Source: a virus. Taken from it: a stretch of DNA of 64,000 nucleotides. Location: IMG/VR virus record IMGVR_UViG_3300034061_002572, positions 1 through 64,000 of that record. One strand, 5' to 3'. The notes below the pieces were generated by a model, which was given only the letters and a program-made list of their open reading frames with translations, had not been told where the DNA came from and did not search any database. Position numbers and translations under genes: made by a program. This document shows, piece by piece, positions 3,177 through 37,400 of the stretch (within the stretch, counting starts at the first letter, position 1; every line of letters starts with the position of its first letter).

Positions 3177-3367
3177 GTAATTTTAAAATTAAAATTTTAT
3201 TGGGAATCTGTGCTATCACAGGTTCAATTGCTGGATACTATTTTGCAACATTTCTATTTGGTAGTATGCCATTTTGGAAATATATTTTGTTTGAATTTGC
3301 AATAACAATTTTGCATACAATGTATAATTTCACAAAAGAACAAGCATTACAAACTGTTAAGAAATGA
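3173..3367 (+). CDS. small membrane protein (2 predicted TM segments)
   Basis: Two hydrophobic stretches; ATGA overlaps on both sides. Confidence 0.7.
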   Translation: MSNFKIKILLGICAITGSIAGYYFATFLFGSMPFWKYILFEFAITILHTMYNFTKEQALQTVKK

Positions 3368-4365
3368 GTGACTATTTAAATACTAAACCAGTAAAAGTAA
3401 AAAGTAAAATTGAAGCTTTTGATGAAGCTTTAGTTCACATAAAAGCAAGACAAGAAGGCAGAATAAAAAGTTTAACAACCGGTTGGTCCAAGTTCAACGA
3501 TGCTTTATTAGATGGGATAGAATGGAATACCCTAACAGTCATAGGGGCCAGACCAGGAACAGGAAAAACTTTTTTTATTGACCAATTGTGTGCTGACGTT
3601 GTTGAGTTAAACCCTAATGAAAATTTTAGAGTTTTACAGTTTCAATTAGAAATGCCGGGAAGAACTAGTGCTATTAGAGAATTATCTACTCCTACTAAAA
3701 AAGATTATAAATCTTTAAATAGTGCAGGTGCTAACAAGCTGACTGATGATGATTATGACAGATGTGTTTCTTATGTAGAAAAACTTAGACAAAATGCAAG
3801 AGTTGATGTTGTATATGACCCTTGTACAATAGAAGAGTTTATGTCTACTATCCATCATTATGTAATGAAACATTGCAAAGAAGTTGATGGTAAAAAGAAA
3901 TATACCAAAGTTTTAATCACAGTGGATCACTCAACTCTATTCAAAAAGTCTGCAAGAGATAAAGACAAGTTTGATATGTTGTATAATCTAGGTGAAGCAA
4001 TTACTTATATGAAGAAAACATATCCAGTTGCCTTTCTTATTTTGAGTCAATTGAATAGAAATATTGATAGTCCTGAAAGATCAGAAAATGGTAAGTATGG
4101 TAACTACGTCCTTGATTCTGATATTTTTGGTGCAGATGCTTTATTGCAACATGCTGATACCCTAATTGGTATTAATAGACCTGCACTTAAGAAAATCAAA
4201 TATTATGGACCTGATAGATACATAATACCGGATGACACTACAATTGTATTTCATTTTCTTAAATCCAGAAATGGAGACACTAGAATTAGTTTTTTCAAGC
4301 TGGATAGACAGCAGATGAAGATTGTAGAAATTGACACTCCTCCGCAACAACAAAAAACAAAATAG
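3364..4365 (+). CDS. dnaB: DnaB-like replicative helicase (C-terminal ATPase domain only)
   Basis: Walker A GARPGTGKT, QLEM, ITVDH, LSQLNR, DALLQHAD and KSRNG motifs. Confidence 0.92.
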   Translation: MSDYLNTKPVKVKSKIEAFDEALVHIKARQEGRIKSLTTGWSKFNDALLDGIEWNTLTVIGARPGTGKTFFIDQLCADVVELNPNENFRVLQFQLEMPGRTSAIRELSTPTKKDYKSLNSAGANKLTDDDYDRCVSYVEKLRQNARVDVVYDPCTIEEFMSTIHHYVMKHCKEVDGKKKYTKVLITVDHSTLFKKSARDKDKFDMLYNLGEAITYMKKTYPVAFLILSQLNRNIDSPERSENGKYGNYVLDSDIFGADALLQHADTLIGINRPALKKIKYYGPDRYIIPDDTTIVFHFLKSRNGDTRISFFKLDRQQMKIVEIDTPPQQQKTK

Positions 4366-19355: not shown

Positions 19356-22300
19356 TTAGTTTAGATTTTCAAATGCTTCATTCTTTTTAATAGCCCATAT
19401 AGGAGATACGTTTTTACCTTTGACTCCAAATATACCAAATAAATGATTCCAAAGTTTATAATGGTATTCACCATTTTCATCTTTATGCTGCCATGGATAT
19501 GGTCCAACATCTGATTTGTATAATCCTTTTTCATTTCCGGTCATCATATACCATAGGTCCATCATAATTTTAGAATATAAATCTAGTGTAGGTCCTGTAA
19601 CTATAGTAGTGCTATTAGTGAACTCTAACCACTCGTCCATACCAATACCTGGAATAGGAATAAATGACTCATTTTCTCTTTTTACCATGATTAACTGATA
19701 CAATGTATGATTAGCCAACCATCCAAATGTACCATATTGATCTTCTCTTTGTTTCATTTTTTCAAATCTGTCCTCATCTCCCTTATCATAACCAAAGATC
19801 ATTGTAACTGCTAATGCAAGTAATGCAAGATAAAGTCCTTCTGCAGCTACTTTTCTTAGTGCTACTTTTTCATCCTTAGTCATTATCTTCCAATACTTGG
19901 TTCCTTGACGGACAGTATTGTACATTGATTGGAAAGCCCTAATGTAATAACCTTTTGTAGTAGTACCCATATCCCAATCATACACTTCACCACCAAAGTT
20001 TTCTTTAGATGTATCAAACTGGAATCTATTCAAGAACATTGATGTAGCATACTTTCTATAGAAAGTAAATAGTCTATATGTAAGATATTTGTTAGCCTGA
20101 GGAGTATCCTGCTCAGACATTAGACCATTTAAGTTTTTACCAACTCCCTGAATTTTTAGTTTGAAATCATTAAATAATTTTGATTTAGAAATTACAAGTG
20201 GTTGACCTTCAGTTAATGTATCTGATGTTAGTTTATTTTTAGTTTTAAGTTCCTCAGCTGTCATATGATATTTTTTAGCAATAGACTCTAATGTGTCTCC
20301 TGCTTGGACATCATAATTAATTGGACTTGGTCCCCATTCAGGATTAATACCTTCTTTAAGTACCATTTGGTTATTTGCATCCAATTCAAATGCATCAACA
20401 TATTTGATTTTTTTTACGGTACCGTCTTTCTGAGTTTGTTCTATTTCTTTATGATACATCATACCATAGAACAACTGTAAGCCAGATTCAACTTCCATTA
20501 GTTTTCTTGAGTCATACATCCAAGTACCATCTAAAAAGTCTTTAACAAATGTTCTAGAACTTGATTTACCAAAGTCTGATTTTGTTTTACCTGTGATAGG
20601 ATCAAATCTTTCCATCATTTGTAAGTCTAGACTCTTTGGTCCTTTAGTATAAATTCCTTTTGAGCTCAGTTCTATGGTTGCTTTAAATGCTCTTACTCTA
20701 CCTTGTGCTGCAGATACAGCATTTAGATATTGACCTCCGGCAGTTTCAATCATTTTTTGGAATGTCATACCAAGTTTGTTTTTTAGTGCTGACGTAACAT
20801 CCAATGCAATGAATGATCTACTAGCTGCTCCCATTAAGTTATTGGCAATCTTAGTAACCCAAACATTTTCATTTTGGAACTGGGAACTTCCTTGACCATA
20901 GAATAATCTATCTATATAGTGACTGTATGCATCTGCTCTTTGGTTATCTCTTCTAAATTTATTCCGTCCTTTAGGAATAAATACTTGTTTACCTCTAGCT
21001 TTAGATGCTTGTTTACTAACTTTATTGGTTTCTTTAATAGCATTTTCCGGATCATTAAGAATATTCTTAAGTGCTTTTGCTATCGGTTCTTCCTCAATAA
21101 GAGCTTGTTGTTCATTCAGAGAGTGTAAATAAGTAGCCGTAGCAGTTAGTACATCTTGAGAAACTTCATTTGCTTTAATTCTATATAATCCTCTTACAGG
21201 GATCTCAGTTATAACTTCTCCTTGTAAGTCAGTCTCAATTAATAAACTATCTGTATCAAAATTAAATTTGTGTTCCGCGTCTTCAGCATCTTTTTTAAAC
21301 ATAGCAAGAGCCCCACCTTTTATTCCTTCAAGTTTACTTCCAAAGTCTGCTTTAGCTTGACCAGATTGAACATACTCAAGATTTGATTTTTTTCTAAATC
21401 TCGGCATGTCTAAATATAATTTAGATTCACTAGGTTTATCTTCTTGAATTTTTAAATACTGTTTTTTATAAGCCTCAAGTAATCTAAATCTAACTCCATT
21501 CTCGGCTTTAAGTTTATAGTACTCATCATTTATGAATTTTTTATCATAAGCACTATTTGGATCTCCTAAGTTATATTCTCTAGGTAAGAATTGTCCACGG
21601 TTATTAATCACAGTACCAATGTATTGAGATTTATCAGCTCCTCTAGGAATAGTCCTGTATTGATCTTTTACTCTTGTATAAGTATATTTAGAAACAGGAA
21701 CACCTAATACATCTAACTCAAGACCATTAGCCGGATTAATAATTTTAGTTTTTACATAATACTTAGAATCACTAGGACGTGTAACAGACCAAGCTTTTAT
21801 CCTATAGTATCTTGTAGTCTCTTTGCCACTCTTATCAAAAAATGTTTTGCTGTAATGATTTCTATCAAACCATTCAGCAAATGCTGAGTTTGCAGCTTTT
21901 ATTTGATAAATAGCCGCTGAATTAATAAACTCATCTGCAGTTTCAGTAGTAATAGATTGTACAGCTCCCATTCCAATAGTGTTATCCGGAAGAAGCTGTT
22001 GAATTTCAGTATCACCTACTACATCATTAAATGTTTTAAGGTAACTATCTGTAGCTGTTGTGTTTGTAATCTCACTCAATTCTTTGAATAGCATCTTGAG
22101 ATTAGTGAGTTCCAGACTTGATAGACCAAGGTCATTCTTTAAATCAAGCAACCTTGCATAATCATCTTGCTCAATTGAAGTCAAATCTTTTCCTTCTTGT
22201 ATCTTAGACTCATACTGGTCTAGTCTTAGTTTTTGCTCAGTTGATAAACCAGTCTTCTTATCAAATGCAGAATTCAATTCAACTATCTTGTCTTCAATAG

Positions 22301-25300
22301 ACTTTAGAAGTTTAGATTGATCAATACTTAGTTCCGCACCATTCGGTTCCCCATCTTTATCCGTTACTAAAGCAACAAGAGCAGATCTTTGTCGGTAATA
22401 CTCAGATAGTTCTCTCACAATATCAGCTTTCTGGTTCTTGGATCCTATCTCTCTTAACTGGGCATATATTTCCTGAAGTCTTTGTTGATATTCTGGAGTA
22501 GTTGCAATTTTTAAATTCTTGTTAAAAAACTTTTGCAACTCTTCATTAAACTGTTTCATCTTTGCCGGATCACTTTCATCATAAGTAATACCTTGAGCAG
22601 CTAATTCAACATTAACATAATTATCTAAGTCTCTTTGAAATTTAGCTGTGTCAGTTACAAACTCATTAAAGCCTGCAGATTTTCTTCTGTGATGTAGTCG
22701 GATTAATACCTTTTGAAGTTCATCACCTGTTTTGTATTTACCAAAGCTATCATAAACATTATAAAGCTCATCATAGTTTCTTTTAGCAATTTGTGAATCT
22801 GTAACTTCTAATACATCATCTAACTCAGTAAAAGGTTTCTTACTGTAAATTGACATCTGGTCAATGGCCTTTTGTCTTTCTAATAAAGCTTGTGTAGCTA
22901 CATCAGCTGGAATTACAATCTCTGTCTTAGTGGATGGATCATATACTCTGTTATCTTGGAACCAAATCTTCTGTACGTCATATACTTCTTTCTTGTATTT
23001 TCTATGCATGTACTTATCATTGAACTCCCAAATATCTTTTTGAGCTTGTCTTATTTTAGCAAGGTCTTCAGTTTCTCTAGCTTGTTCTAATGCATCATTT
23101 AACCTTCCTATCTCAGCTCTCCAACCAGTAAACTTATCAATCAAGGATAATACTTCAAATTCTTCATACTCTCCTTTGTCATTCTTACTTGGAATTTTAT
23201 CAGTAAACATTAATAGTTTAGCTAGTTGCCCTGTATCATTTGGATTATATCCTGCAGCTTTTAGTTCCGGAAGAATAGATGACATAAAATCATTCCACTC
23301 TGTATAACTTTTACTTTCTGCATTAGATAGTTTAGACTTCATATATCTTACAAAAGATCCTAAAGGATCATCTATATTAGAATATGGTGTCATCATTGAG
23401 GCCAGGATACCTAAGTCTCCAGCTTTACCTTCTAGAAGATCCGTTATTTTTTCTTTAGTGATAACCTTTGCAAAGTAAGATTGCACAGCATCAAGTATTG
23501 CTTTTTCAAATCTAGTAGGTTTTGGAAGTTTTAAATCCTTCACATCAAACCTTCTCATATCCTTAGTATTAACTATCTGGTCAACTACTGAATCTATTTC
23601 AGCATCCGTATAGTTGTCAGCCTTAAGAATATTCATCATCTTTTCTTTAAGAGAATTTGAAATTGATTCATTCATAAAGTCTGAATTCTCTACAATGAAA
23701 TCTTTCATAAACTCTTTCTCCAACTTTCTAGTCTCAGCAATTGTATTTCTTACTCTCTCACCTATAGCAGATAATTTTTTAGTTAATGCATTATCTGGTT
23801 CTAACTTAAGTGTATCTTTAATCTCATCTAGAAAATCATTTTGTCTTTCCAAAAACTGCTGATAATAAGCAAGTTTGGCCATTCCTTCATTAGTAAGATG
23901 TTCATTAGATTGTTTCATCTCATTAATTACTGTCTGAATTCTTTTTGTAAAGACCTCTATTTCACTTATACTGTTTATAAATGCATTAGCCCTGATTCTA
24001 AAATCAGTTTGTTGTTCTTCTATTTGTCTTAATAACTCTGCAGGATCTATAGAAGCTTGATTAGGATCAACAGTTTGTGAAGTTTGAAGATTATCAATCA
24101 GATTTCTTAGAATTCTCATCCCGTCTTTTCCCTGAAGTTTTTCTTTTAACTTATAAGGGCTATTTTTTAAAACTCCAATCTGGAACATTGCTTCACTATA
24201 AAATCTATTAATAGCTTCTAAGAAGTCTTTAGCATCCGTGGACTTTAAATCATTTAAGAAATCATCAATATCATTTTTAAACTCAGCATAGTCACTTGGT
24301 TCAAACTGTAAATTTTCAATCACAAAGTCTTCACCTAACAACATATCAGTTAATTGCTCTAAGTCTGTAGTTGACTTTAGTTTTTTCAAGTCAACTTTTC
24401 TCCCCATAACTTTATTTATGATTTGCTTGATAGCATATAATAGTAAGTCAATGAATGCTTTGAAGTTATTATCGTCTGATACAATACCATCAATTTTATT
24501 CATGGCATCTCTCTCTAAAGCAGTTACAAGACATTCTTCTTTGAACCGGTCAGACTCTTGGTCTAACTCTGGGTAAGTATTAGTTATGATATTGCTGATA
24601 TCTTTCCCATCTGCTGTAGTCATAAGCTTGAAATACAGATTTTCAAATAGGACTCTGTTATCTCTTGCAATACCTTTAATCAATGGATGTGCAAACTCAT
24701 GTATTAAGTTATCTACAGAAAACTTACCGTCTATAAAATAGATTTTATTATTAAAATAAAATGACGCGGCATTAGGTTTTAATGGTGTTTGAGTATCAGC
24801 TAATAACTCTTCTGCTTCTGACTTACTTATCATTTGATAGTCCATACCAAATGCAGCCTTAAACTTCTCTCCTAATTTTTGAGCAATCTCATTGGCTCTT
24901 GCCTTTTTAATTTCATCCTCATTCTTAGGAAACATTGAATACATCTGCTCCTCAATAGTAGTAGGTTCCTCATTAAATAAACTGATTTGACCTTTTTCTT
25001 TTATTGCTTTTTCAATATCAGAAATAAGTTTACCTCTTTCAATTGCTCTCTGCAGTTTTGCGGGAGCATCCAACATACCTTTTCTTTTAGTAACTATCCA
25101 GTTATATAAACTAGATTGACCTACAGGAACATAGTTAGCAAAGTAATTTATAGGAATACCCTTTCTAAAATTATCTGTATTCTTTTTATCAATAGCCTGA
25201 TTAAGTCTTATCTGATCTTCATTATAGATTTCTTTCTTAATTGAGATACCAAGATCTGTTTTAATATCAGCGGCAGTCATTATACCAAGATCTTTTCTAA

Positions 25301-25442
25301 CACTGTTAGACTTTAAGAACTCAGCATATCCAGGAAACTCTTCATTAAAATACTTATCAACTAAATTTTTAATTTTTATTTCACCAAATATATCTGTTAG
25401 CCTTTTTACTTCCGGATCAGATAAGTTTAAACATGTTGCCAT
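19356..25442 (-). CDS. giant putative ejected virion protein with N-terminal zincin (HEFAH) and LysM domain
   Basis: 2028 aa, next to the vRNAP gene; IHEFAH...EE; YDVQAGDTLESIAKKYHMTAEELKTKNKL...GQPLVI; hydrophobic C-terminal segment. Confidence 0.85.
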   Translation of the reverse strand: MATCLNLSDPEVKRLTDIFGEIKIKNLVDKYFNEEFPGYAEFLKSNSVRKDLGIMTAADIKTDLGISIKKEIYNEDQIRLNQAIDKKNTDNFRKGIPINYFANYVPVGQSSLYNWIVTKRKGMLDAPAKLQRAIERGKLISDIEKAIKEKGQISLFNEEPTTIEEQMYSMFPKNEDEIKKARANEIAQKLGEKFKAAFGMDYQMISKSEAEELLADTQTPLKPNAASFYFNNKIYFIDGKFSVDNLIHEFAHPLIKGIARDNRVLFENLYFKLMTTADGKDISNIITNTYPELDQESDRFKEECLVTALERDAMNKIDGIVSDDNNFKAFIDLLLYAIKQIINKVMGRKVDLKKLKSTTDLEQLTDMLLGEDFVIENLQFEPSDYAEFKNDIDDFLNDLKSTDAKDFLEAINRFYSEAMFQIGVLKNSPYKLKEKLQGKDGMRILRNLIDNLQTSQTVDPNQASIDPAELLRQIEEQQTDFRIRANAFINSISEIEVFTKRIQTVINEMKQSNEHLTNEGMAKLAYYQQFLERQNDFLDEIKDTLKLEPDNALTKKLSAIGERVRNTIAETRKLEKEFMKDFIVENSDFMNESISNSLKEKMMNILKADNYTDAEIDSVVDQIVNTKDMRRFDVKDLKLPKPTRFEKAILDAVQSYFAKVITKEKITDLLEGKAGDLGILASMMTPYSNIDDPLGSFVRYMKSKLSNAESKSYTEWNDFMSSILPELKAAGYNPNDTGQLAKLLMFTDKIPSKNDKGEYEEFEVLSLIDKFTGWRAEIGRLNDALEQARETEDLAKIRQAQKDIWEFNDKYMHRKYKKEVYDVQKIWFQDNRVYDPSTKTEIVIPADVATQALLERQKAIDQMSIYSKKPFTELDDVLEVTDSQIAKRNYDELYNVYDSFGKYKTGDELQKVLIRLHHRRKSAGFNEFVTDTAKFQRDLDNYVNVELAAQGITYDESDPAKMKQFNEELQKFFNKNLKIATTPEYQQRLQEIYAQLREIGSKNQKADIVRELSEYYRQRSALVALVTDKDGEPNGAELSIDQSKLLKSIEDKIVELNSAFDKKTGLSTEQKLRLDQYESKIQEGKDLTSIEQDDYARLLDLKNDLGLSSLELTNLKMLFKELSEITNTTATDSYLKTFNDVVGDTEIQQLLPDNTIGMGAVQSITTETADEFINSAAIYQIKAANSAFAEWFDRNHYSKTFFDKSGKETTRYYRIKAWSVTRPSDSKYYVKTKIINPANGLELDVLGVPVSKYTYTRVKDQYRTIPRGADKSQYIGTVINNRGQFLPREYNLGDPNSAYDKKFINDEYYKLKAENGVRFRLLEAYKKQYLKIQEDKPSESKLYLDMPRFRKKSNLEYVQSGQAKADFGSKLEGIKGGALAMFKKDAEDAEHKFNFDTDSLLIETDLQGEVITEIPVRGLYRIKANEVSQDVLTATATYLHSLNEQQALIEEEPIAKALKNILNDPENAIKETNKVSKQASKARGKQVFIPKGRNKFRRDNQRADAYSHYIDRLFYGQGSSQFQNENVWVTKIANNLMGAASRSFIALDVTSALKNKLGMTFQKMIETAGGQYLNAVSAAQGRVRAFKATIELSSKGIYTKGPKSLDLQMMERFDPITGKTKSDFGKSSSRTFVKDFLDGTWMYDSRKLMEVESGLQLFYGMMYHKEIEQTQKDGTVKKIKYVDAFELDANNQMVLKEGINPEWGPSPINYDVQAGDTLESIAKKYHMTAEELKTKNKLTSDTLTEGQPLVISKSKLFNDFKLKIQGVGKNLNGLMSEQDTPQANKYLTYRLFTFYRKYATSMFLNRFQFDTSKENFGGEVYDWDMGTTTKGYYIRAFQSMYNTVRQGTKYWKIMTKDEKVALRKVAAEGLYLALLALAVTMIFGYDKGDEDRFEKMKQREDQYGTFGWLANHTLYQLIMVKRENESFIPIPGIGMDEWLEFTNSTTIVTGPTLDLYSKIMMDLWYMMTGNEKGLYKSDVGPYPWQHKDENGEYHYKLWNHLFGIFGVKGKNVSPIWAIKKNEAFENLN

Positions 25443-25444
25443 TA

Positions 25445-28400
25445 CTATCCTAATTTACATTTTTTATAATATTCTAAAACTTCATCTACAGATAACTCAG
25501 GGTTCTTAAGTATTTCTTGATTAAAGAATTGACCAAACTCCGCACTGTTTAAAATTTCAACATCTGATTTTTCAAAAGTTGGCTCTTCTAAACTCTCAGT
25601 ACTTTGTGGTTTAAGTTCCTCTGGAGTTATTCTATTGTCATTGCTTTTAGAAGTATATCCATAGATTGTAAAGTTATTATAATTTTTAGACATTAAATAT
25701 TCTAAAAATGGTCTATCTGCAGAACTGTTACCAAAAATGAATGTAGCCTTTTTACTTATGAATGCATTAATTGCTTCTTTTACTGGAGCGTCCAAAGGTT
25801 TATTTCTTAAAGAATAGTTTCTTGCCAACATAATCACCGGGTTCTCAATATGAGACATTGGAGCAACTAATCTAGCTCTTCCTTTTATTTGAGCTACCAC
25901 ATTAGGTTTAAGTTCTTCTGGCAGCTGATCTTTAATTTTTTTCTGTACTACCCTAAGTGTGGTTTGTGAAGAACTAACAGATTCAACTGATTCAACTAAA
26001 GCACCGTCTGCCATCTGTCTCATCTTTTGATCAGCTAATGTACCATCTTCTTTACTTACCTTTTTAAACTCACCCATGTCAATGAAGTTCTCAGATAAAT
26101 CTGGTTCTCCAGTTTCTATGTATTCATCAGGAGTAAATCTATTGTAATCCCAAACATCTTTAAGTCTTCCAAATGCAATCTTAGCAGCAAATGTATTTCT
26201 CCAATCAGCAATTCTTAAAGTAACACCTGAACTAAGTTTAATAGGTCTATTTGCTGTTCTCTCAGGAGTAACAACATCATAACTAAATATATCAATTGCT
26301 TTAGCTTCTATGTCACCAGTATGAGAATCTGTCTTAGGAATATATTGACTAACTACTTTACCTTCTGCATCTACTATATCATAACCAACTACCTTGTTGT
26401 TTTTTCCTTGGAATTCAACATTCTCTATTGTATATCCTTCTGGAGCTATCAACCAAGTATCCGTAGAGATACCATCTTCTTTATTGACAATTTCTCTAAC
26501 ATAAACATTATTAGGATAGAGTTCTTCAAAAATTTCTTTTCCTTTTTCTCTAGTTAATGTTGATACCCAATCTAAGTCATGTACTTGATTCTCATTTGGT
26601 CTGTATACACTACCTTGTTCTGATAGTGTAGTTGACCCGGTAAGAATAAAATATTCTGACATCTTATCTACTACAGCAGTTGCAAATGGATCAGAGTCTA
26701 GTGCTTCTTGTAAGTTAACTGGAGTTATTGGTTTACCTTCGGCCCCCGGCTTATAATTACTTGCAACAATCATAGACTTATTTCTAGCAAGAACACCATC
26801 AGCAATTAATCCAATATTCCTATTGATTCTTTTTAATCTAATTGCATTGATCAAATTAAAGAAATAGTCAATTAATATTTTAATCTTCTCAATTAAAGAT
26901 TTAGGCATTTCTGTATTGGTCTTCTTATGAAGTTGTTCTGAAATAAGTTCCCCGATAACATCTAACAACTCATCCTTTGAAGATGATTTGTATCTGCTGT
27001 ATTTTCTTAGAGCTTCATAAGTCTCAGTAACCAATGGGTTATGTTGCATCATATAGGCAATAAACTTACCTGCAATGTTTGGTAAATCTTCCGTGTTATC
27101 CTTTTGTACATAACCTATTTTGTTAAGTATATCAGCTACCGCAAAAGAATCCATTCCTAGTTTCTCTTTAATATCAGTATACTCAAACTTGATTCCAAAT
27201 GAAGACAAGTAGTTTACTAAGAGTTTATTTAGTTGATTCTCAGCTTCAGGCACAGATCTGTTTAACAAGTTTGTGTCAATAGGATCAATGTTAACTTTAC
27301 TGAAGTCATAAAGCTTTTTAAGATTTTTCTCTAAATATTTTTTATTGATGCTACCATCATTGGCTCTTTTTCCTGTCTTAGGATCAAGAGTTCCCTCATT
27401 TCTAGATGCATTTAACCAAGTCTCATAGTTTCTAGTTACATTATAAATTATATGAGATGGTACTCTAAGATCATCTAATGAAGCTTTGATAACATTTACA
27501 TCTGCATTTTTATCATTTTTCAGAATTTCATTTCTCATTCTGTTATATGCATAAAGTGCAAGTTCTCTTTTGTTCAACTTTTTGATTTCATCAGCAGTTA
27601 CTTCTTCTAAAGGTTTTCCAAATAATCTCATAGAGATTCCCGGATTAGAAGCATACATATACTTTTGCATGTTCTCTTCTTTAAAGTTATATCTAAAGCT
27701 TGCCTTACTTATTTGATAGCCACTTCTTTGATATTTATCAGTTACATCCTTAGGAGCAAATCCAATTACATCAAATTGTTTAGATATATAAGGAATAGCT
27801 TCAGCTAAAAACTGTTTACTTGTTGGAGAAGAGTTCATGTTTGATACAAACACATTTAATCTAGGCTCATATGTACCAAAGATGTAAGTGTCCTTATACT
27901 TAATAACATTACTATTTTTAACATATCCAACAAACTTTTCATAAGGCAATGCAGACTCAGCTCTTTGTTTATTTCTACCCATCAGATTAACATAATTCTG
28001 ATAAAGTTTCATTAAGAACTCTTGAGAGGGCTCCTCACCTAGGACATCTGATAATCTATTTCGAACCATACCTTTTGGCTCTACTTCATTATCAAGTGTA
28101 TTAAAATCTAAACTACCTATTCCAGGAGCAATCTCATTAACTGCAGGTTTAGGAATATCAATTTCAAGAATCGGAACACTTAATATTTCATCTTTTTGTA
28201 TACGGCTTGCATTAGTAAATGAATTATAATTTTCAGGATCCTGAACATAATTCTTAAAGTAATCTTTTCCTTTAAACAAACTTTCAAAAATATTATCAAA
28301 TGTATTGATATTAAGATTTCTATTTGTAAAGTTTATAGATGCGTTCTCCATAACTAGTAGGAACTGATCATAAGGAAGTACTTTATTGATACCATATTTA

Positions 28401-31400
28401 CTGTACCCAAGTCCATTTTGATAAATAGACATTAAAGGTAAAATCTTAAATACTTCTGTTATGTATTCATTTGCTGCTGGATCATCAGACTTAAGAACAT
28501 TTATATCAGCAAGATCAGTAAGGTTAAGATTATATGACTCAGCTAAGTCACCTTTTGCTAAACCTTTATTGTTTAAAGTAAGAATTTTTTCTGCTCCTCT
28601 TGAGTTTGCTTCACTCAATTGTAAGAGTACAGGATATTTATCTTTTAAAGTTGGATACTCATTAATTACACTTTGTACAAGTTTGGTAAATGAATATTCT
28701 TCTGTACCTACAATTGCTTTTTGATTAAAGCTATTTATAAGTGCTCTTTGATTTACAAAAGTTTCATAGTCTCTTGATTTTAACCATCCGGAATTATCTT
28801 TCATTGATGCTTTTGGAAACTTATCCTTAATAAATTCTCTTTCCATAGTATATCTCAAGTATGAAGCAAATGTTTCAAAAGGATCATCTTGTGTTTTAAA
28901 TGGTTTTAAACCTTTCTTTGCATATGCCTCAGGACTTGGAGAACTATCTAAATATGTTTTTGCATTAAATTGTTTTTTCAGTTCTTCAGTATTTATATAA
29001 AAGTTTCCGTCTTTAAACTCAACACCGTTATTTAATTCAGCTGTAGTTTGAACAACTTGAGCTCCTCTGTATATCTCAGGAATATTAACAACTTGACCTT
29101 GAGCATTAATTATATTTGTCATATAGTTCTGATAAATATAATTGACTACTGCATTTTTATATTCATTAATGAATTGTCTTACTCCTTCCTGACCTTTTCC
29201 ATATTTACCTGTAATCTTAGATGCATATGCCGAAATAGCATAGCTTACATACTCATTAATTCTTTTGTTATTTCTGAGTTTGAATAATGGCTCAAGTAAA
29301 TCAAGAACAACTTGGTTGTCAAAGAATGTATTAAGGATTGATTCGTTTCTTAATTTTTCTATTAACTCCGGATCAATCTTAGATAAGTCAGATAGATCTT
29401 CAAGTGCTGTAACTCTTTCAACTATCTCTTGTATAGTCTTAGAAGTTTTAGTATCTGGATTAGATTGTCTCTTTAATGCTTGAATACCTTTAATTTGTTT
29501 TTCAATTTCAATAAAGTGTAAGAACATATCCAATGATTTTTTATCAATAGGATAACCTTCTTTCAATCTGTTTCTCATATCAGCTGTATCAAAACTACCA
29601 GTATTTGCAACTGTAGCTGCTGTATAGTAATTTTTATTTGTTACAAGTGATTGAGCTGGAGCATAGATTACATCATATTTTTGTTTGTCTGGATTGTATT
29701 CTTTAATTGCAGTAATATGATCTATACCTCTATCACCAGGTTTTAATACTTTATCAAGACCGTCTATGATTTCTTTTCCTGTTAATACTTTAGTAAATTC
29801 CTTTGTATTACCATTTGCATCTGTACCATTAAACTTGTATTGATATTTAGTATTCCAAACTAAAAGATCTTTTACATTTTTAATGTTCTCTTCATTTAAT
29901 TTTTTGTATACTGGATCTAAAATATCTCTTGGTACCAAGTTATTAATGGCATTATTAGATGCTTCATATTTTATGTATGAAGGTGACTCTGGTGACTGAC
30001 CACTGAGTTTTCCATATACACTACCTAAAATCTTTTGTTGTTTTACATACTCTCTTACAAGAGGCTGTGATACAAAATTTATAGCCTCATTCTTTGGAAC
30101 ACCTGTTTTAATTAAATAAGCTAAGACAGGTATTACTTCTAAGTTACCTTGAATAAAGAATATCCATGCATCTTTCTCAACATCCACAAGACCGTTCATC
30201 ATCTGTGAATATAAATCAGCTATTGTATCCCCTTCAGCATTTAGAATGTTTGATAATGAGATATTTCCCGCGGCTGTTTTATTATGATTAAGTCGCAATC
30301 TCATATCCATTTCTTCTCCATACTTATCTTCCACGTATCTTTGACGAGACTCATCAAAATAAACTGGTTTGTATTTTAAAGGCATCTTAGCACCAAGTGC
30401 ATTAAAGATTGGACTTAATGAGTTTTCAATAGCTACAATACCAAGACCGGCCTTACCAACCATGTTTACATCATGCTTGTGTAAGTTGTATCCAATTTCT
30501 AATACTCTGGTCGGACTGATTACCTTTTTAGCTTTTCCTTTTTTATCTATAACATACCGATCACCCTCATTATGTTCATTACCAAACTTGTTATAGTCAA
30601 TAACATCTGATTCAAGATCATCTGCAATTTCCTTAAGTAGATAAGTTTCATTTGGTCTTACTAAGTTTGCATAGTTTTCAGGAAGCTCAAGTATACCTCT
30701 GATAGAAGTTATGAGTTTGTTCTCAAGTACTTTTTTCTTTTCTTCAATAAGACCTAACACTCTTGATCTAGCATTTTTGTCATCTGAATTCTTAATGTTT
30801 TCTATTACTCTTTTGAGAGCTTCATTATCAAATTCTTCTGTGCTTTCTCTAAACTGACCTTTCTCATTTATACTTGGCATAAATGTAGTCAACTTATCAA
30901 CGTCAAAGTCAGATCCTGATTTGGCAACAATTTCAGATGGAGGAATGATTATATTACCTGCAGAAGGATGTAAGAAGTGATGTACTTCCATAAACTCCAT
31001 AGAGTTTAGACCCTGAACTGGAATCCTAACTGCTGTTAAGGTAACTGATTTTCTATTAGTTCCAGTATCTAACCAGTCATCATCTTTAATAGCTTCATTT
31101 AGTCTAGCTAAACTTGCATTAAAATCTACTGTACCATCTGCATTATTAACCTCAATGGTTTTATTATCAGGATGTTTTAATTTAAATAGATTTTCAAAAT
31201 CACCTTGCATTGCAATAGCAACTTTCATTGCTGATGTTTTCCCTCCATTATTATCATAAAAAGGAAGGTTATTAGAACCCATGTACTTTCTAATGTCATC
31301 TTCGGTTGCTCCAGTAAATTTATTACTATGACCCCATAGACCATTACTTAAACCACTAGATACTTGTACAAGAGCTTCACCTTTTACTTTTTGTTTTACA

Positions 31401-34400
31401 AGTCTTTTCTCAATAAGTGATACTAAGATTTTTTCAATCTCATCTGCTTCTAGATGTAATGATAAATCTGTCTTTACATTATTGTTTTCTGTTACATTTA
31501 CAAATTTAATATGGTGCTCAGGTATTGCTCTTCTTCCTAATTCATCACGAACTACTTTTAAGAAATCACCTAAGTTACCTACATATTTACCATTCTTATA
31601 CTCATATCCTATTTCCTCAAGTAATTGAGTTTTGAGAATGTCAGAGTATTCATCTACTGTATCTTCATATTGTTTTACAGCCGCCTCAATGTCTGTGTTA
31701 CCTCTTAAATTTATAATCCCTTGTTCATATAGACCTTCAAGAATTAACTTTCTTAACTGAGTAGAGAATACAGTTTTACCTTTAAATTTATTTGGAACAG
31801 ATGTAACATTCTTTAAGTATTCAAGATATATTGTATTCTTAGTAAATTCAATATCAGTCTTTAACTTTTTACTTTCTGGATCATCATATATCTGATCAGC
31901 TTTACCATCTTTAGTTTCACTACCAACTTTAGAACCAGTTTGGAATGTAACATACTGAACTCCTTTCTTCATCATTTGATGGTGAAGTGATTCAAGATCA
32001 GATCCTTTTATTACATTAGGTATCAATGGAATCAAGGCAAATTTATGCATTGCATTGACCGGTAACTCAGTATATGCCAAGTGACCAAAGTGCTGTAACT
32101 TATATGCTGGAAAAAATTCAGATATCTCAGAAGTTGTAACTGGTTTGTTTTGAATAATTTTTTGGAATAGAGCTTCCTGTTTATCCGTCCAATTGTTTTC
32201 AAGCAATCTTAAATTCCTATATGCATCAAAAGTAATGAAACCTTGTGCATCAGTCTCTTCCATTTTTTCATACTTCTCAACTTCTAAGTTTACTCTTCTT
32301 TCAACCTCAGCTTTAAGAGCATCACCTTTATATGATTTACTTAACTTGTTAGTATAATCTTTAGTCAGACCTTTTCTGATTTGCTCAGTATAAACAGACT
32401 TTCTTTCTATATCTCTGAATATTGCAGTATTGAAAGTACCTCTATACTCAGTCCATAGATTCATTTCATTTGCAAATTCAGGTTGTTTCTTTAACTCTTT
32501 TGCATATGAAGTATTTTTTGCAAAGCTATTTATAAAGTTCTGTGCATATACATCAGTTAGAAATCCTTGCCCACCTGATGTAGATCCTGTATTTCTTTTA
32601 TGCATCTCTTCTTTTGCATGGTTATATTGTACCATATCACCATACATAAGGTTTGCAGTCTCAAAGTTATGTATCCAGGAGTTGTATGTAAAAGCTTTTA
32701 CTAAAGCTGATACAGCTTCACTTTGCTTCATACCTAATCCTGTAAGTCTTTTTAATAGTTTAGGATCTATGTAGTTTACCTCAGTAAGATACTTCTCATT
32801 CTTAAGAGCTTGAGCATCAAAGTAATTTTTAATCTCATTAGTAATCTTTTCTCGAAGTTCTGTATTTGTTTGTAAGTATTCTCTTAATGTAGAATCTTTT
32901 ACATTTTTATAGATCTCTTCTTTAGTATCTTGAGTTAATACATTATCAAATGCAGTAAAGACTTGACCAGCATAAAGAATAGGATCACCATTGGCATCAT
33001 ATTCTAAAACTCTATTATATCCACTATATGTTTTAAATAGATCTTGATCAGAATTAAATGCTTGAATTCTTCCTAACTCAGCATCCAAATAGTCTATAAA
33101 GAATTCTTCAACAGCATACTGGTTAGCAATACCATTAGGAGTGAACATGTCTATATCAATATATAGATGTCCATCATCTCCTTTTTCCATTCCTCCAACT
33201 ATATCACCGTTTACCTTTACACCAAATGAAGATGACTTAGAAGCATGTCTCATAAACTCTTGAAGACCACCTTTTAACATCATATGCATTTCTTGCAAAA
33301 ACTTACTATAGATATCTAGTGAAGTAGTATTAGCTCCTTCCGTACCATCAGCAATCTGGGTTCCAGACACATAATTCAAATCCAAAGACTTACCTTGCCT
33401 TCTTTCATAAGTAGCTGTATCAATTTCAAAAATACTGTTTAGAATCTTTGATCTCAAAGTAAAAGAGTTTATCTCTGGATTAAGATAACTCATATACGCT
33501 AACTTGTCAGATCCCCATAATTCTTGTAAATTCTTAGCTTGATTAATAGCATGCACAATCATACTAACTGTATGATCTTCAATGTGTTCAAATACTAGAT
33601 TTCTCTCGGCATTCAATACACTAAAGTTTGAAGAGTCTGCACCATATTTACCTTGAAGTTCTGCAAATCTTTCTATAATATTTTTTTGCTTGAACTGTTC
33701 TGTTCCAATAACACCTGCCGGAATTCCTTTTTTCAATACTCCAACAGGATCTAGTTTAAAGTCAGCTATTGTTTTTAATTGATCTCTAGTGACTTTATTT
33801 TTTTCTTTATTAGATAGTTCCTCAAGTTCAGAAAGTTTTTTAACTGCCTGATAAATATACTGGAGACTATAGAAGTCTTTATTTTTATTAAGCTCATTCT
33901 TTATAATTGATAAATCATCAAGATATAAACCAATGGCTCTTGCAAATTCAAATGACTTTGTACTATCAAATGCACCACTATCTTTTCTTCCAAATTTTTC
34001 AGCAATCTTTTGAAGATCAAGAGAGTTTACATTATTAGTTCTAATAGTATATGGATTGTTTGTATCCGCCTTAAACTTATTTTGAAACTTCCGTATTACA
34101 CTGGAAGTCTCTATTGAAGCTTCTGTAACTTCTAACTCATATCCTTTACCTTCTTTAAATGCCGTAAGCTGAATATATGTTACTCTTGGCTTCTTAAAGT
34201 CTTGCCAGAATGCAGAACTAATTGAAAACTCATACTTATCTAAAGTCTTTGTTGGGTCCGGAAGTTTATAATCAATAAGTTGTTGTAACTCAGGAAATGT
34301 AGTAGAAGCAGCTTTAAGCTTATTATACATTTCAACTCTGTCTTTTGTACCACCTATTGTTCTGGTTACATTATTCCATGTAGTAGTAAAATCAGCAAGT

Positions 34401-37400
34401 TCTTTAAAACCTAGTTTATTGTAAACAAAGTTTTTACCATCTTTCTTAAATAAACTTTTTAGAATGTAAACAGTTTCTTTACTAGCTAGTTCTTGAAGAG
34501 ATTTATCATTAGATATTTTATCACCATACCTTTCACTCTGTTGAGCTTCTTCAACTACAGTTTTATTTTCATCATCTGCATATTCTATTTCAATATACTT
34601 CTGACGAACAATATCAAATGTACTGTTTTCAATATGATACTTTACTAAACCTTTAGTTTCATCACCAAAATTATCTAATCCAATTTGAATGATTCTCTTG
34701 GCATCTTCTAACTGAGATATCTCATACTCTCTTTCAGGATTATTTTCAATAACTTTAATTTGAGAATCAATTTGTTTTAGTCTCTCTCTGAGTTCTTCTT
34801 CAACCATCTCATAAGCAACCTTCTTGTTTCTTTGATCAGTTAAGATTTTTACAGCTCCCGCCTTACTTACTATTTTATCATCATTCTGTTGTTTAGCAAG
34901 TTCAATAGACTCTGCATAAGTTTTATCAATAATATCAGATATAATTGAATCAATACTATTTACTAATACTGCAGAATCTTGAAAGTTTAATACTTCTGAC
35001 TTTAAACCATCAACAGAATTAACACCTCTATCCAGCATGCTGAACATTGCATTATCTACATTTGGTTTATAGATGTTTAGTATTGAGGGATCACCACTTG
35101 CCATGTATAACTTATCATACAATTCCTTGACAGCAGGTATAAGAGTTACATCACCGGCAACTTCTTCTCTTTTGAATACTTTATTAAATAATGACTTTAT
35201 AAAATTTAAAATTCTTCTAAACAGACTATTCTTTACAGGAGTATCTTTTGCAGCTTTTGGATTTAGAACATAACTCCTAAAGTCTTCTGCCAGCATTTCT
35301 TCTAATTCAAAATATGTTTTGTCTTTGTTAGGTTGATTACCTTTAGAATCTGTATAATTTTTTAATTCATTATATAGCTTAGTCTTTTCTTCTTTAGTTA
35401 AGAACAACTGAGAAAATGCATGCCATGCTTCATGGTATACATCTACCATAGTTCCACCATTAGCAGTATCAATATTTATACTTGTATCCGCCAGAGTAGC
35501 TCCAGCAATAATAAAATTTGCAAAAGAATCTGAGTTAACAACATTACTCATTTGTTCAAGCTTGATAAACTTACTTAATGGACTATTCTTCCACCATTTT
35601 ATAGCTTCATCAACTTGTTCTTTGGTAACATTATTAGGTAACTTATTACTTCTGTCCCAGAAAAATCGGTTTCTCAAAGTTCCTTTTGAAGTAGGTGTTT
35701 CTTCAGGTCCTTTAGTATCTTTAGGTTGAATACCTTCTTCAATACTTGGAGCAACTGGGAATGATACACTTTCTTTAAGTATAAAGTCATCGGTACTTGT
35801 CGGTAATACATCCGGTTCACTTTTTACTGCTGAATCTACATTAGTAGGTGCAACCTCTCCAAATGTAAGAGTATCTGTAACTTCTCCTTCTTCTTTAACT
35901 TCAGTAGGTTGAGTAGATGGTTTTTGATCAACTTTTTCTTTAGCTCTATTTAAACTTTCAGTAAATGGAGTATTAGGTCTGAACATAATATAAGAGTTGA
36001 AAACTCCTAGACTATTCTCAGGTGTAAATTTTACTTTAGCAGGAAACTGTTTAATGAAATCAGTATAGTTTGCTCTTACAAACTTACCTGTAGTAGTATC
36101 ATAGTCAGAAAAAGTTTTACCATTAAGTTTAGGTTCAAACTTCATTTTAGAAGTTGAGTATTCACCGTCCTCTCTATATGCATACTTTAATACATTCTCG
36201 ATAATATCTTTTGCATCTGGTTTAGTAAGATCAAGCGCAATAGGATCATTCTTTAATTTATCTAACATAGCTTTATACATTGTATAAGGTCTATAGAAAA
36301 ATGATAGTTTGCCTTCTGCTTTATTATAGAAGACAGCATGTCTTTGAACTGAATAGTCAAGATTAGCTGTAAACTGATTTACATAAATATATTTTTGTTG
36401 ATCGGTTAACTGTGGATTTGTAAGTACTGCAACAATTTTACCTATAAGATTATCATCCATATTAGGTCTATTAACTGCAAACTCTCTGTCATTAATAGTA
36501 ATTACTGCTTGAGATTGTCCAAAACCATCACGAGGAGATTTGATAATATTTAGTGTTTGATATACATCATTTGATACTCCCGGGATATTTGTTAGTTCAT
36601 TAAACTTAACTTCCTTGGTCACATATCCCATGTTTAATCCTTCACTAACACCAGTTATAGAGAAGTCTTCAGTTTTCCCTTCTAGTATATTTTTTTTAAT
36701 ATCATAGAGAATTTTAAACTGAGCTTGCTGTTCAACTTCTTTTTCAGCAATTAAATCTTCAATTGTTTTTCCTGTATCTTTTAATAACTGAGCAGCAAAT
36801 TCTTCTTCAGTCATTTCTGATTCAGCTATTTCATTTTCTACAAGTTGTTTAGGAGTAATGATTTGATTATCAATACCATAGATATCTGTTACTCTATACT
36901 TGCCATCTTCAATTCTGGTGTCTCTTAAAAATTGATAAACCAGTTTTCCAGTTTCACGATTATCAGTAACATGTCCATCTTCATCAAATAAAACAATCTG
37001 ATTAGTATTTTTATCTACTAATACCATTGCAATCATTTCATTTGCTTCAGTAACTCCAGCTCTACCTGTTTTGTTCTTTCTAAATAGAGCACTCTTTTTT
37101 ATTCGGTCAATAGCATACTTATCTAATTGCTCTTGAGGAAGTTCTGTTAATCTTTTAGGTTGAAGCACTAAGTTTTTACCTTCAAAGATTAGATCTGTCA
37201 TTGCATTAAATCCTTCAGGTAATGATCTTCTGATATTATATAGAGTATTATAAATTCTATTTTTTGTTGGTTCAAGTTCTTCAATTGCAAACTCTTCTTT
37301 CTCAGAAGGTTTTTTTGCTTTGAATTGTTGCATTGTTAAACCAAAAGGACTCTTAGCAGCAAGTCTTACATCAGCTTTCTGAATAGGCTTTTGTTCATTT

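Follow-up and report, generated by a model that had tools for sequence, protein, structure and literature searches.

A domain close to the end of a 4115-residue protein of an uncultured crAss-like phage, known from one IMG/VR record, is predicted to be a catalytically intact nucleotidyltransferase (NTase) of the DNA polymerase β (Pol-β) superfamily (residues ~3690-3895). With a helical domain directly upstream (residues ~3545-3690) it would form a two-domain unit, the second-to-last module of a virion RNA polymerase polypeptide. The packaged polypeptide would be ejected with the DNA, which would place the enzyme in the host cytoplasm before any phage gene expression; there, the NTase would move nucleoside monophosphates (NMPs) from NTPs onto an RNA 3' end, either of a host tRNA or of an early transcript. 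To this reading taken as a whole, i.e. an intact DUF1814-like NTase, within a mobile two-domain unit, that is delivered by the virion together with the RNA polymerase and transfers NMPs to an RNA 3' end, we assign a probability of roughly 0.55. With respect to its parts, catalytic activity of the domain is very likely, delivery with the DNA is probable by analogy with a studied relative, and an RNA 3' end as the substrate is our best guess, held tentatively and at less than even odds.

The window, i.e. the whole 64,000-nucleotide stretch of viral DNA that was analysed, encodes the carrier protein in one open reading frame (ORF), with no interruption over its 4115 residues. This ORF unites a zincin-like signature (a like module is present in 55 of the 189 NTase-bearing proteins), an RNA polymerase, two modules termed A and B, the NTase and a tail, a polyvalent architecture, the modules of which are shuffled between relatives (Table 1). 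As judged from a DFDxD motif and from tblastn matches, the carrier is a crAss-type RNA polymerase. Available portions of the relevant sources describe DFDxD as the catalytic motif of crAss-type two-barrel RNA polymerases (10.1101/2020.03.07.982082; PMC7886860). Residues 1400-2800 of the carrier matched 69 phage records by tblastn, the organism names of which are Bacteroides or Cellulophaga phages, crAssphage and uncultured gut phages; several of these records carry the annotation putative RNAP, and the RNA polymerase genes of crAss-like phages are 21-25% identical to the carrier, with E values down to 3e-19. A phmmer search with the same region matched no PDB chains at E ≤ 0.01, and homology to the solved crAss-like polymerase structure is therefore unsupported by sequence. 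By megablast, no nucleotide relatives of positions 25445-29000 were found among phages. The crAss-like virion RNA polymerase gp66 of phi14:2 is about 2180 residues in length; the DFDxD motif is common to gp66 and the carrier, but the latter is approximately twice as long and has, as extra modules, the zincin-like signature, A, B, the NTase and the tail.

These results bear out an initial, sequence-only reading of this DNA, which had placed the NTase motifs on an RNA polymerase, about 1400 residues past its active site; given the position of DFDVD at residues 2295-2299, the motifs start ~1420 residues later. The same reading had put the NTase at the C terminus of the polymerase, which is correct in so far as the domain lies near the end, but not at the very end, because a further module of ~210 residues (~3905-4115) lies downstream.

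Table 1. Features of the carrier protein and their positions in the window.
Feature	Residues	Position	Strand	Basis
Giant ORF P0001, carrier protein, 4115 aa		25445..37792	minus	ORF list and translation
Zincin-like signature, HEAWH ... EEMLAEDFR	787-839	35276..35434	minus	motif location
DFDVD, an instance of DFDxD (catalytic in crAss-type two-barrel RNA polymerases)	2295-2299	30896..30910	minus	motif location
Module A, first part of the cassette	~3285-3480	27353..27940	minus	jackhmmer
Module B, helical domain directly upstream of the NTase	~3545-3690	26723..27160	minus	recurrence and AF2 model
Predicted Pol-β-fold NTase domain	~3690-3895	26108..26725	minus	AF2 model, Foldseek, VIA, profile match
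Motif I, hG[GS], FILTGS (G3719, S3720), FILTGSTTLSEQG	3715-3727	26612..26650	minus	motif location
Motif II, VHDLDWV (H3738, D3739, D3741)	3737-3743	26564..26584	minus	motif location
IDIF, D3834 as candidate third carboxylate	3833-3836	26285..26296	minus	motif location
Motifs III and IV, AAKIAFGRLKDVWD	3869-3882	26147..26188	minus	motif location
C-terminal tail module, ends KKCKLG	~3905-4115	25448..26080	minus	recurrence among carriers

All four proposed NTase motifs were located, at the expected places, within the single ORF, and they are more than a chance resemblance, in that they recur family-wide. The motif definitions were taken from the available part of PMC3985639, i.e. hG[GS], DhD, motifs III and IV and the family-specific +DxxD pentad of AbiEii/DUF1814. 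LTGS occupies residues 3717-3720 and HDLD residues 3738-3741, such that an hG[GS] loop is followed by DhD on the next strand, as in the Pol-β superfamily; motif III is K3871-I-A-F-G-R3876 and motif IV, with the +DxxD pattern, is K3878-D3879-V-W-D3882. In AF2 model 1, H3738, D3739 and D3741 are on a predicted β-strand (model residues 71-76), the candidate third carboxylate, D3834, is in a predicted strand (163-170), and motifs III and IV are on predicted helices (196-204 and 209-216). The spacer between motifs I and II comprises 18 residues, compared with the canonical 9-13 given in the same part of PMC3985639. Residue conservation was analysed over 189 full-length domain copies, with 193 carrier proteins being examined in all. 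G3719, H3738, D3739, D3741 and D3834 are invariant (189/189), S3720 and the spacer residue R3731 are each kept in 184 copies, K3871, R3876 and K3878 each in 186, D3879 in 187 and D3882 in 185, and the fourth position of motif III is aromatic in 165; the copies are otherwise only 26-60% identical.

The predicted fold of the domain is of the Pol-β NTase type, the sole fold among the strong structural matches. AF2 model 1 (pLDDT 84.3, pTM 0.80) was compared with the PDB using Foldseek, a check that had been proposed at the outset, and gave four matches at E ≤ 1e-3, all of them JHP933 or MenT1, with low TM-scores (0.30-0.40). On VIA re-alignment, all 50 of the 50 entries listed were Pol-β-superfamily NTases, with Z from 9.5 to 5.0. 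A Foldseek-independent VIA search of 48,161 chains returned NTases as its top seven, namely Megavirus poly(A) polymerase (Z 9.4, rmsd 3.8, 154 residues aligned), MenT1 (8.7) and TM1012 (8.1), then TglT/MenT3 (8.0), LnuA (7.9), ANT(2'') (7.8) and JHP933 (6.8), values of 8-9.5 being in the range that VIA terms 'middling'; the first clearly different fold was at Z 4.6. At the sequence level, a domain-only profile (A2) matched JHP933 (E 0.0047 and 0.061) and TM1012 (E 0.5) in the PDB, with no other match at E ≤ 10. The domain-only alignment was used in place of a flank-containing profile (A1), which gave only noise against the PDB, and a single-sequence phmmer search of the PDB with the domain gave one unrelated match (E 0.18). 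A two-domain model of module B with the NTase gave no better structural matches than the NTase alone; a Pol X-like arrangement of the two was considered and rejected, the family-X alignments being long, with TM ~0.18-0.20 and low probability. ANT(2'')-Ia, LnuA and TM1012 are similar to the phage domain in size and fold (Z 7.8-8.5), with the TM1012 profile match being weak, but as far as the alignments show they do not have +DxxD, and they are free-standing bacterial proteins.

The domain had initially been credited with the complete signature set of AbiEii/MenT-like enzymes. The four-motif layout, including +DxxD, holds, whereas membership of that family does not follow, there being no PF08843 match at E ≤ 10 and a weak hhalign match. 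The features in common with DUF1814 proteins (AbiEii, MenT1, MenT3 (TglT), MenT4 and JHP933) comprise the Pol-β fold (Z 8.7-9.3 for MenT1, 8.0-8.2 for MenT3 and 6.8-7.2 for JHP933), hG[GS], a long Arg-holding spacer, DhD, a Lys-aromatic-Arg motif and the +DxxD pentad, and JHP933 is the sole sequence-profile match at E < 0.01. Motifs I and II with a long spacer and a conserved Arg, R3731, are present in DUF1814-like form; K3878-D-V-W-D3882 is an exact fit to +DxxD, and motif III falls short of KLxAaxxR by two residues. There are also differences. The spacer is of 18 residues here and of 15 in DUF1814, its Arg is 8 residues before the first Asp compared with 4 in AbiEii, and the phage family has an invariant His before the first Asp. 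In the model, motifs III and IV are 2 residues apart on two short helices, rather than in the ~100-residue helical lobe of DUF1814, and these two helices are all that follows the sheet, the large C-terminal helical lobe of the DUF1814 toxins being absent from the model. Two positions ahead of the first Asp, 176 of the 189 copies have L, V or I, and the Ser/Thr regulatory phospho-site described for MenT1/MenT3 in the available part of PMC10435456 is thus absent. The phage domain is internal to the 4115-residue ORF and has no small partner gene, in contrast with the DUF1814 toxins, which are free-standing and accompanied by an antitoxin (AbiEi/MenA).

The local hhalign match of the family to AbiEii has a probability of 4.5-4.8% and an E value of 0.008-0.009, over 42-49 columns around motifs I and II, with motifs III and IV unaligned; its score, 25.5, compares with 12.2 for the reversed profile and with ≤17.8 in 30 of 30 column shuffles. 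This weak match pairs the family G/R/D/D with G49/R63/D67/D69 of the AbiEii alignment (A3), i.e. R3731 with the invariant AbiEii R63 and D3739/D3741 with D67/D69, whereas global hhalign against AbiEii failed, with a score of 1.9. PF08843 gave no matches at E ≤ 10 in the whole phage genome, with the same model being positive in 47 of 81 test genomes. For the domain itself (residues ~3690-3895), hmmscan found no Pfam families at E ≤ 10, and no PADLOC model at E ≤ 10 and no NCBIfam model at E ≤ 1 matched; a PHROGs search, made with the whole protein, gave no match to the NTase domain at E ≤ 0.01. We read the domain as a new nucleotidyltransferase family, DUF1814-like in motif layout; the family is unannotated and phage-restricted.

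A search of 1.84 billion representatives recovered the ~220-residue domain from 224 representative clusters at E ≤ 1e-3, of which 151 reach E ≤ 1e-10; nearly all of them are of giant proteins. The NTase starts in the first third of the carrier in 77 cases, in the middle third in 46 and in the last third in 66, and its relative position ranges from 0.11 to 0.94 across 53 carriers. The domain had been put forward as an effector carried by the RNA polymerase, yet it is not polymerase-specific: a crAss-type polymerase is present in only 24 (by BLAST) to 35 (by DFDxD) of the 193 carriers, and ~80% of them (158-169) have no detectable RNA polymerase. Two carriers hold the N4-type virion RNA polymerase domains PF21624 and PF21867, and other carrier domains in relatives include zincin, PDDEXK, ART-PolyVal, LysM and PIF1 helicase. 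The NTase and the helical domain upstream behave as a mobile unit, which turns up anywhere along the giant multidomain ('polyvalent') proteins of phages. None of 50,697 deposited phage records matched the NTase domain by tblastn at E ≤ 1e-5, a scan of one genome per species over 185,579 prokaryote species gave one locus, and a single-protein search of viral contigs gave 19 pattern matches, of which 0 were confirmed. A literature search, to which supplementary files were outside scope, found no published report of a virion polymerase, crAss-type or N4-type, that bears an NTase.

Module B precedes the NTase in 159 of the 189 carriers, with a gap of <60 residues in 155, and has five helices in AF2 model 2 (pLDDT ~54-84); module A is upstream in 84 (jackhmmer). 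Neither module has a Pfam match, and a profile of module A (A5) found nothing at a meaningful E value in the PDB. The tail module is present in only 11 of the 189, which are P0001 and its close orthologues, and has no usable Atlas, Pfam or NCBIfam match. Relatives have further partner domains, which are absent from the 4115-residue protein. A tRNA-ligase-type 2H phosphodiesterase directly follows the NTase in relatives (P0116; PF08302, E 4.4e-7, 30.1 bits against a cut-off of 23), with a 2H-like domain in 6 of the 193 carriers, and a Walker-A domain is present in 24 of the 193, in most directly after the NTase. The Walker-A domain was considered as a kinase, but because it matched no known kinase family it is not called one.

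Available portions of the reports on phi14:2 describe its crAss-like RNA polymerase as part of the virion, translocated together with the DNA (PMC7886860; 10.1101/2020.03.07.982082). If the same applies here, the NTase, being part of the RNA polymerase polypeptide, would enter the cytoplasm prior to phage expression; the uncultured source phage has only distant relatives for which packaging and ejection are known. With regard to what the enzyme might modify, the substrates of the structurally closest proteins are very different (RNA, tRNA, aminoglycosides and lincosamides), and the fold therefore does not fix the substrate. No tRNA genes are present in the window and, judged by the window alone, the phage thus relies on host tRNAs.

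An alternative function in which the enzyme acts in RNA repair or counter-defence, rebuilding or protecting RNA 3' ends (e.g. the CCA of tRNA) that have been damaged by defence nucleases or NTase toxins, alongside the end-healing domains fused in relatives, is consistent with the 2H cyclic phosphodiesterase and Walker-A partners, with the lack of tRNA genes in the window and with the shared fold of CCA-adding enzymes (Z 5.3-5.8). The protein studied here has neither partner, however, the Walker-A domain is without an assigned kinase family, and the CCA-adding enzymes score below MenT and the poly(A) polymerases and have body and neck domains for tRNA measurement that the phage domain does not; we regard this alternative as unlikely. 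A role in tailing, in which poly(A)-like 3' tails would be added to the first RNAs from the ejected genome by an enzyme delivered with the virion RNA polymerase, draws on the highest structural scores obtained, those to the giant-virus poly(A) polymerases of Megavirus (4p37) and Mimivirus (4wse) (Z 9.4-9.5, ~150 residues aligned, rmsd 3.5-3.8), which are likewise viral NTases acting on RNA 3' ends. Among the BFVD matches are putative catalytic subunits of viral poly(A) polymerases, an Atlas neighbour cluster has PF19244 (Poly_A_pol_cat) on 11% of its members, and virion RNA polymerases of two unrelated kinds, crAss-type and N4-type, carry the module. The giant-virus enzymes are ~500-residue dimers with duplicated NTase-like domains, and the hosts of these viruses are eukaryotes. 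Tailing nevertheless appears rather improbable, given that their Z values are within 1 unit of that of MenT1 at 5-7% identity, that the sequence-profile signal is to DUF1814 (JHP933) and not to poly(A) polymerases, and that most carriers have no detectable RNA polymerase.

A target other than RNA, via NMPylation of a host or phage protein or nucleotidylation of a small molecule (e.g. a nucleotide signal used in defence, or a compound resembling an antibiotic), is suggested by the small-molecule NTases ANT(2'')-Ia and LnuA at Z 7.8-8.0, by an Atlas neighbour cluster with PF10706 (Aminoglyc_resit) on 40% of its members, and by the protein NMPylation that Iyer et al. predict, in the available part of PMC5512222, for the minimal Pol-β NTases of polyvalent proteins. 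It is improbable, although the case against it is indirect: DUF1814-type motifs III and IV have hitherto been linked, in PMC10435456 and PMC3985639, to tRNA-modifying enzymes and GTP binding, and the partner domains of the relatives are of RNA-end types. The lack of a match to any curated family model, in a giant protein that is otherwise mostly structural or without assigned function, might also indicate an inactive remnant, i.e. a dead NTase serving as a spacer or packaging domain. Dead domains lose catalytic residues, whereas the predicted catalytic residues of this family are invariant or nearly so over 189 otherwise divergent copies, and for this reason the remnant is rejected as extremely improbable. 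The preferred reading, an active, virion-delivered NTase acting on RNA 3' ends, can be extended to a more specific proposal, in which the unit would be an RNA-end-remodelling enzyme embodying MenT/AbiEii chemistry taken over by phages and injected along with their genome. Its action would fall within the initial seconds of infection, when it would either disable host tRNAs or repair or shield RNA ends against tRNA-targeting defences, and, as a cassette, it would be exchanged between the RNA polymerase and the other giant proteins that crAss-like and N4-like phages eject; taken in full, this extended version is possible but doubtful.

Few known viruses are as abundant as the crAss-like phages and, to our knowledge, the greater part by mass of the giant proteins that they eject is without assigned function. 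A ~220-residue portion of one such protein is now a predicted enzyme with named, mutable catalytic residues, and its family, which comprises at least 224 sequence clusters, is covered by no database model. In motif layout, the known relatives of the family are tRNA-blocking toxins of bacterial anti-phage and toxin-antitoxin systems; were the NTase to be injected, phages would be employing the chemistry of those toxins on the opposite side of the conflict. The module also provides a handle for studying the exchange of cargo domains among ejected 'polyvalent' proteins. Pol-β NTases of polyvalent proteins, as described in the available part of PMC5512222, likewise lie within a multidomain protein from a mobile element, a protein presumed to be delivered to the new host. 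According to that part of the source (Iyer et al. 2017), they occur only in conjugative-element proteins of Firmicutes, fused to ArdC-N, and are minimal four-strand domains, related to NTox45, that are among those absent from phage-type polyvalent proteins (PMC5512222). In contrast, the family reported here is phage-type and larger (~220 residues, with extra strands), and has DUF1814-like motifs. The gene for the 4115-residue protein sits among giant genes and adjoins one encoding 1799 residues, which matches PHROG 'virion structural protein' families.

The polymerase-borne nucleotidyltransferase (NTase) is a real finding, and the reading of its fold as Pol-beta-type is correct. The domain represents a new family of NTases with a DUF1814-like motif layout, and forms one half of a mobile unit of two domains that giant phage proteins carry. 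All four motifs quoted in the sequence-only reading are present in an ORF of 4115 residues that runs without interruption on the minus strand (25445-37792 of the window). Given the position of the DFDVD motif, the domain starts ~1420 residues after it, in agreement with the ~1400 residues proposed earlier; the domain is not the C-terminal end of the polypeptide but its second-to-last module, with ~210 residues still downstream. Across 189 full-length copies, which in a sample are 26-60% identical to the query, G3719, H3738, D3739, D3741 and D3834 are kept in every copy, D3879 in 187, K3871, R3876 and K3878 in 186 each, D3882 in 185, and S3720 and R3731 in 184 each, with Gly in place of S3720 in the remaining five. 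As a pattern of sequence conservation, this is that of a working active site as opposed to a decayed domain, and the invariance of the catalytic residues implies that the domain would be an active enzyme.

Positions of features in the giant protein and of the genes that adjoin it
Feature	Window position	Residues of giant protein	Strand	Remark
Giant gene, 2028 aa, LysM domain (E 4e-11)	19356-25442		-	adjoins polymerase gene
C-terminal tail module	25448-26080	~3905-4115	-	in 11/189 carriers: the giant protein and ten close orthologues only
AAKIAFGRLKDVWD		3869-3882	-	NTase motif
IDIF		3833-3836	-	NTase motif
VHDLDWV		3737-3743	-	NTase motif
FILTGSTTLSEQG		3715-3727	-	NTase motif
Module B (helical)		~3545-3690		
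Module A	27353-27940	~3285-3480	-	upstream of NTase unit in 84/189 carriers
DFDVD		2295-2299	-	polymerase motif
Zincin-like signature HEAWH ... EEMLAEDFR	35276-35434	787-839	-	N-terminal part of polymerase protein
Giant gene, 2091 aa, weak PD-(D/E)XK match (E 1.6e-4, at cut-off)	37803-44078		-	adjoins polymerase gene

The fold was borne out by an AlphaFold2 model of the domain (18-sequence alignment; mean pLDDT 84.3, pTM 0.80), for which the Foldseek comparison suggested by the sequence-only reading gave four PDB matches at E<=1e-3, i.e. Helicobacter pylori JHP933 (three chains) and MenT1, followed in rank by further MenT1 entries, TglT/MenT3, TM1012 and the Megavirus poly(A) polymerase; Foldseek TM-scores of the model are low (0.30-0.40). 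When Foldseek's best 1000 chains were realigned with VIA-align, all 50 entries listed were Pol-beta-superfamily NTases, with Z scores of 9.5 for the Mega/Mimivirus poly(A) polymerase, 9.3 for MenT1 and, at the lower end of the matches listed, down to 5.0 (Pol beta, Pol lambda, CCA-adding enzyme, TdT). A Foldseek-independent search of 48,161 representative chains returned, as its top seven, NTases already topping the Foldseek-based comparison, namely the Megavirus poly(A) polymerase (Z 9.4), MenT1 (8.7), TM1012 (8.1), TglT (MenT3; 8.0), LnuA (7.9), ANT(2'') (7.8) and JHP933 (6.8), Z values of 7-8 being such as may stem from common arrangements. Fifteen chains reached Z>=5 in this search, the first clearly different fold being a complex I subunit at Z 4.6. 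The assignment is made jointly on the unanimous matches, the catalytic motifs and the sequence-level signal. Matches in BFVD were poly(A) polymerases of viruses along with small proteins of phages, and those in the ESM Atlas were unnamed phage clusters, a few members of which carry DUF7277, Poly_A_pol_cat or Aminoglyc_resit.

With respect to sequence, a domain-only profile of the family gave E values of 0.0047 and 0.061 for JHP933 and of about 0.5 for TM1012, with no other match at E<=10; we take JHP933 to be a DUF1814 member, its record label reading just 'putative nucleotidyltransferase'. Compared by hhalign with an alignment of 24 AbiEii genes found with PF08843, the phage domain aligned over 42-49 columns only, around motifs I/II (probability 4.5-4.8%, E 0.008-0.009), its G, R, D and D pairing with AbiEii G49, R63, D67 and D69; the score was 25.5, versus 12.2 for a reversed control and a maximum of 17.8 over 30 column shuffles. 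The parts of Dy et al. (PMC3985639) used here describe motif I/II of DUF1814/AbiEii enzymes as hG[G/S]x15DhD, with a spacer that exceeds the canonical 9-13 residues and contains an Arg, motif III as a Lys in a hydrophobic/aromatic setting (KLxAaxxR), and the family-specific motif IV as +DxxD. The phage domain resembles them in its LTGS-x18-DLD with a conserved spacer Arg, in its K-I-A-F-G-R, the fourth residue of which is aromatic in 165/189 copies, and in its K-D-V-W-D, which fits +DxxD exactly. It differs in the invariant His immediately before the first Asp, in having L, V or I (176/189) at the position of MenT1 T39 and MenT3 S78, in motifs III and IV lying two residues apart, on what are predicted to be two short helices without the helical lobe, and in the lack of an antitoxin gene. 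The AbiEii/MenT-like signature proposed by the sequence-only reading holds for the motif layout, but the Pfam AbiEii model had no match at E<=10 anywhere in the phage genome, and global hhalign against the AbiEii alignment fails. We conclude that the phage domain would work like the DUF1814 enzymes and is probably distantly related to them, and we set it apart from PF08843 as a separate, unannotated family.

Against Pfam at E<=1, the whole 4115-residue protein had just one chance hit (0.11), and against PHROGs at E<=0.01 it had none; for the excised domain (P0002, aa 3669-3908), Pfam and PADLOC gave no match at E<=10, and NCBIfam none of any significance. A word-indexed search limited to proteins of 2263-7202 residues found 53 carriers (28-98% identity), and when 1.84 billion cluster representatives were scanned exhaustively with HMMER, 224 reached E<=1e-3, of which 151 reached E<=1e-10 and 55 reached E<=1e-30; almost all are thousands of residues long. 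A full-length copy is present in 189 of 194 sequences examined, and two copies in none; the carriers have a median length of 2628 residues, and the domain starts in their first, middle and last third in 77, 46 and 66 cases, respectively. By tblastn nothing was found at E<=1e-5 in 50,697 deposited phage records, and a pattern scan of one genome for each of 185,579 prokaryotic species yielded one locus. On these searches, the family is restricted to uncultured phages. The prokaryotic locus (L002, 3-9590) consists of an ORF, at least 3195 residues long, that is cut off by the start of its contig; this 138,768-bp MAG contig, labelled uncultured Myxococcales, may be of phage origin and have been binned with a bacterium.

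Jackhmmer within 193 carriers places module B upstream of the NTase in 159/189, directly so (gap <60 residues) in 155, at least 150 upstream residues existing in only 174. A model of the two together (pLDDT 76.5, pTM 0.60) has module B as five helices with a low-confidence linker, and its structural matches are the same NTases as for the domain-only model. Module A has a strongly conserved core (e.g. DTYIFG, SSP, ASVP.D) with no match in Pfam or by profile against the PDB, the tail module has no usable match in Pfam, NCBIfam or the Atlas, and a zincin-like module, present in 55/189 carriers, often precedes the NTase by a few hundred residues. The polymerase region of the giant protein has BLAST similarity to 24/193 carriers, DFDxD occurs in 35/193, and in polymerase-type carriers the NTase stands either before or after the polymerase. 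Two relatives, P0052 and P0053 (4700-5014 residues), combine the unit with the N4-type vRNAP domains PF21624 and PF21867 (vRNAP_plug, vRNAP_dom_2); therefore, the NTase module has become linked to virion polymerases of two kinds that are unrelated to each other. Further carriers hold PD-(D/E)XK, ART-PolyVal, LysM or PIF1 helicase domains. The picture is of a cassette moving among co-encoded giant proteins, in line with the 'polyvalent protein' theme as set out in the parts of Iyer et al. (PMC5512222) used here, in which Pol-beta NTases are a minimal NTox45-like version, confined to conjugative-element proteins, from which the phage family differs. In other phages the unit lies near the N terminus of proteins with LysM or PD-(D/E)XK domains; the LysM and PD-(D/E)XK giant proteins neighbouring the polymerase gene in the present phage are without it.

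The source record (122,643 bp) is rated complete by CheckV. The window (G+C 31.6%) encodes replication genes (DNA polymerase, exonuclease, ATPase) on its plus-strand part and a run of giant genes on its minus-strand part, one of which (1799 residues) matches PHROG 'virion structural protein' families. Residues 1400-2800 of the giant protein match 69 deposited phage records by tblastn (21-25% identity, E down to 3e-19), named as Bacteroides or Cellulophaga phages, crAssphage or uncultured gut phages, the annotation of several reading 'putative RNA polymerase' or 'putative RNAP catalytic subunit'; at E<=0.01, phmmer gave no relative of this region with a solved structure. In crAss-like phages, DFDxD marks the catalytic site of the polymerase that is packaged in the virion (10.1101/2020.03.07.982082; PMC7886860), and we accept the sequence-based label 'crAss-type virion RNA polymerase polypeptide'.

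Because the NTase sits in this polypeptide and, among crAss-like phages, also in giant proteins encoded nearby, its delivery with the phage DNA is implied, by analogy with relatives in which such delivery of the virion polymerase is known (PMC7886860, in part). The fold does not fix the substrate, since the enzymes with the closest folds include some that act on RNA 3' ends, some on tRNA and some on small molecules. A tilt towards RNA ends is suggested by the motif III/IV layout, so far tied to tRNA-extending MenT toxins in the parts of PMC10435456 used here, and by the partner domains. In P0116 and P0061 a 2H phosphodiesterase of the tRNA-ligase type (P0116: PF08302, E 4.4e-7), which resembles the CPD domain of fungal tRNA ligase, comes immediately after the NTase; 2H-like domains occur in 6/193 carriers, four of which hold them elsewhere. 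A Walker-A (GxxxxGKT) domain of ~225 residues, with no Pfam, NCBIfam or PDB sequence match, occurs in 24/193 carriers, in most cases directly after the NTase; in a divergent branch of the family (P0105, P0106, P0108, P0119 and others) it directly follows the NTase at the extreme C terminus of the giant protein. Both partners fit RNA-end remodelling and are compatible with a role of the unit in host shut-off as well as with one in repair or counter-defence.

In the full-text literature, supplements and subscription journals aside, no virion polymerase of the crAss or N4 type was found to be described as bearing an NTase; the texts included parts of PMC5512222, PMC3985639, PMC10435456, PMC12386605, PMC13573597 and PMC7886860.

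A tRNA search of the window found none. The zincin-like module may serve in polyprotein processing. The giant protein has only two cysteines, at residues 5 and 4112, the latter inside a conserved ending, KKCKLG; several short members of the family end in ..KCL, ..NCL or ..CKL.
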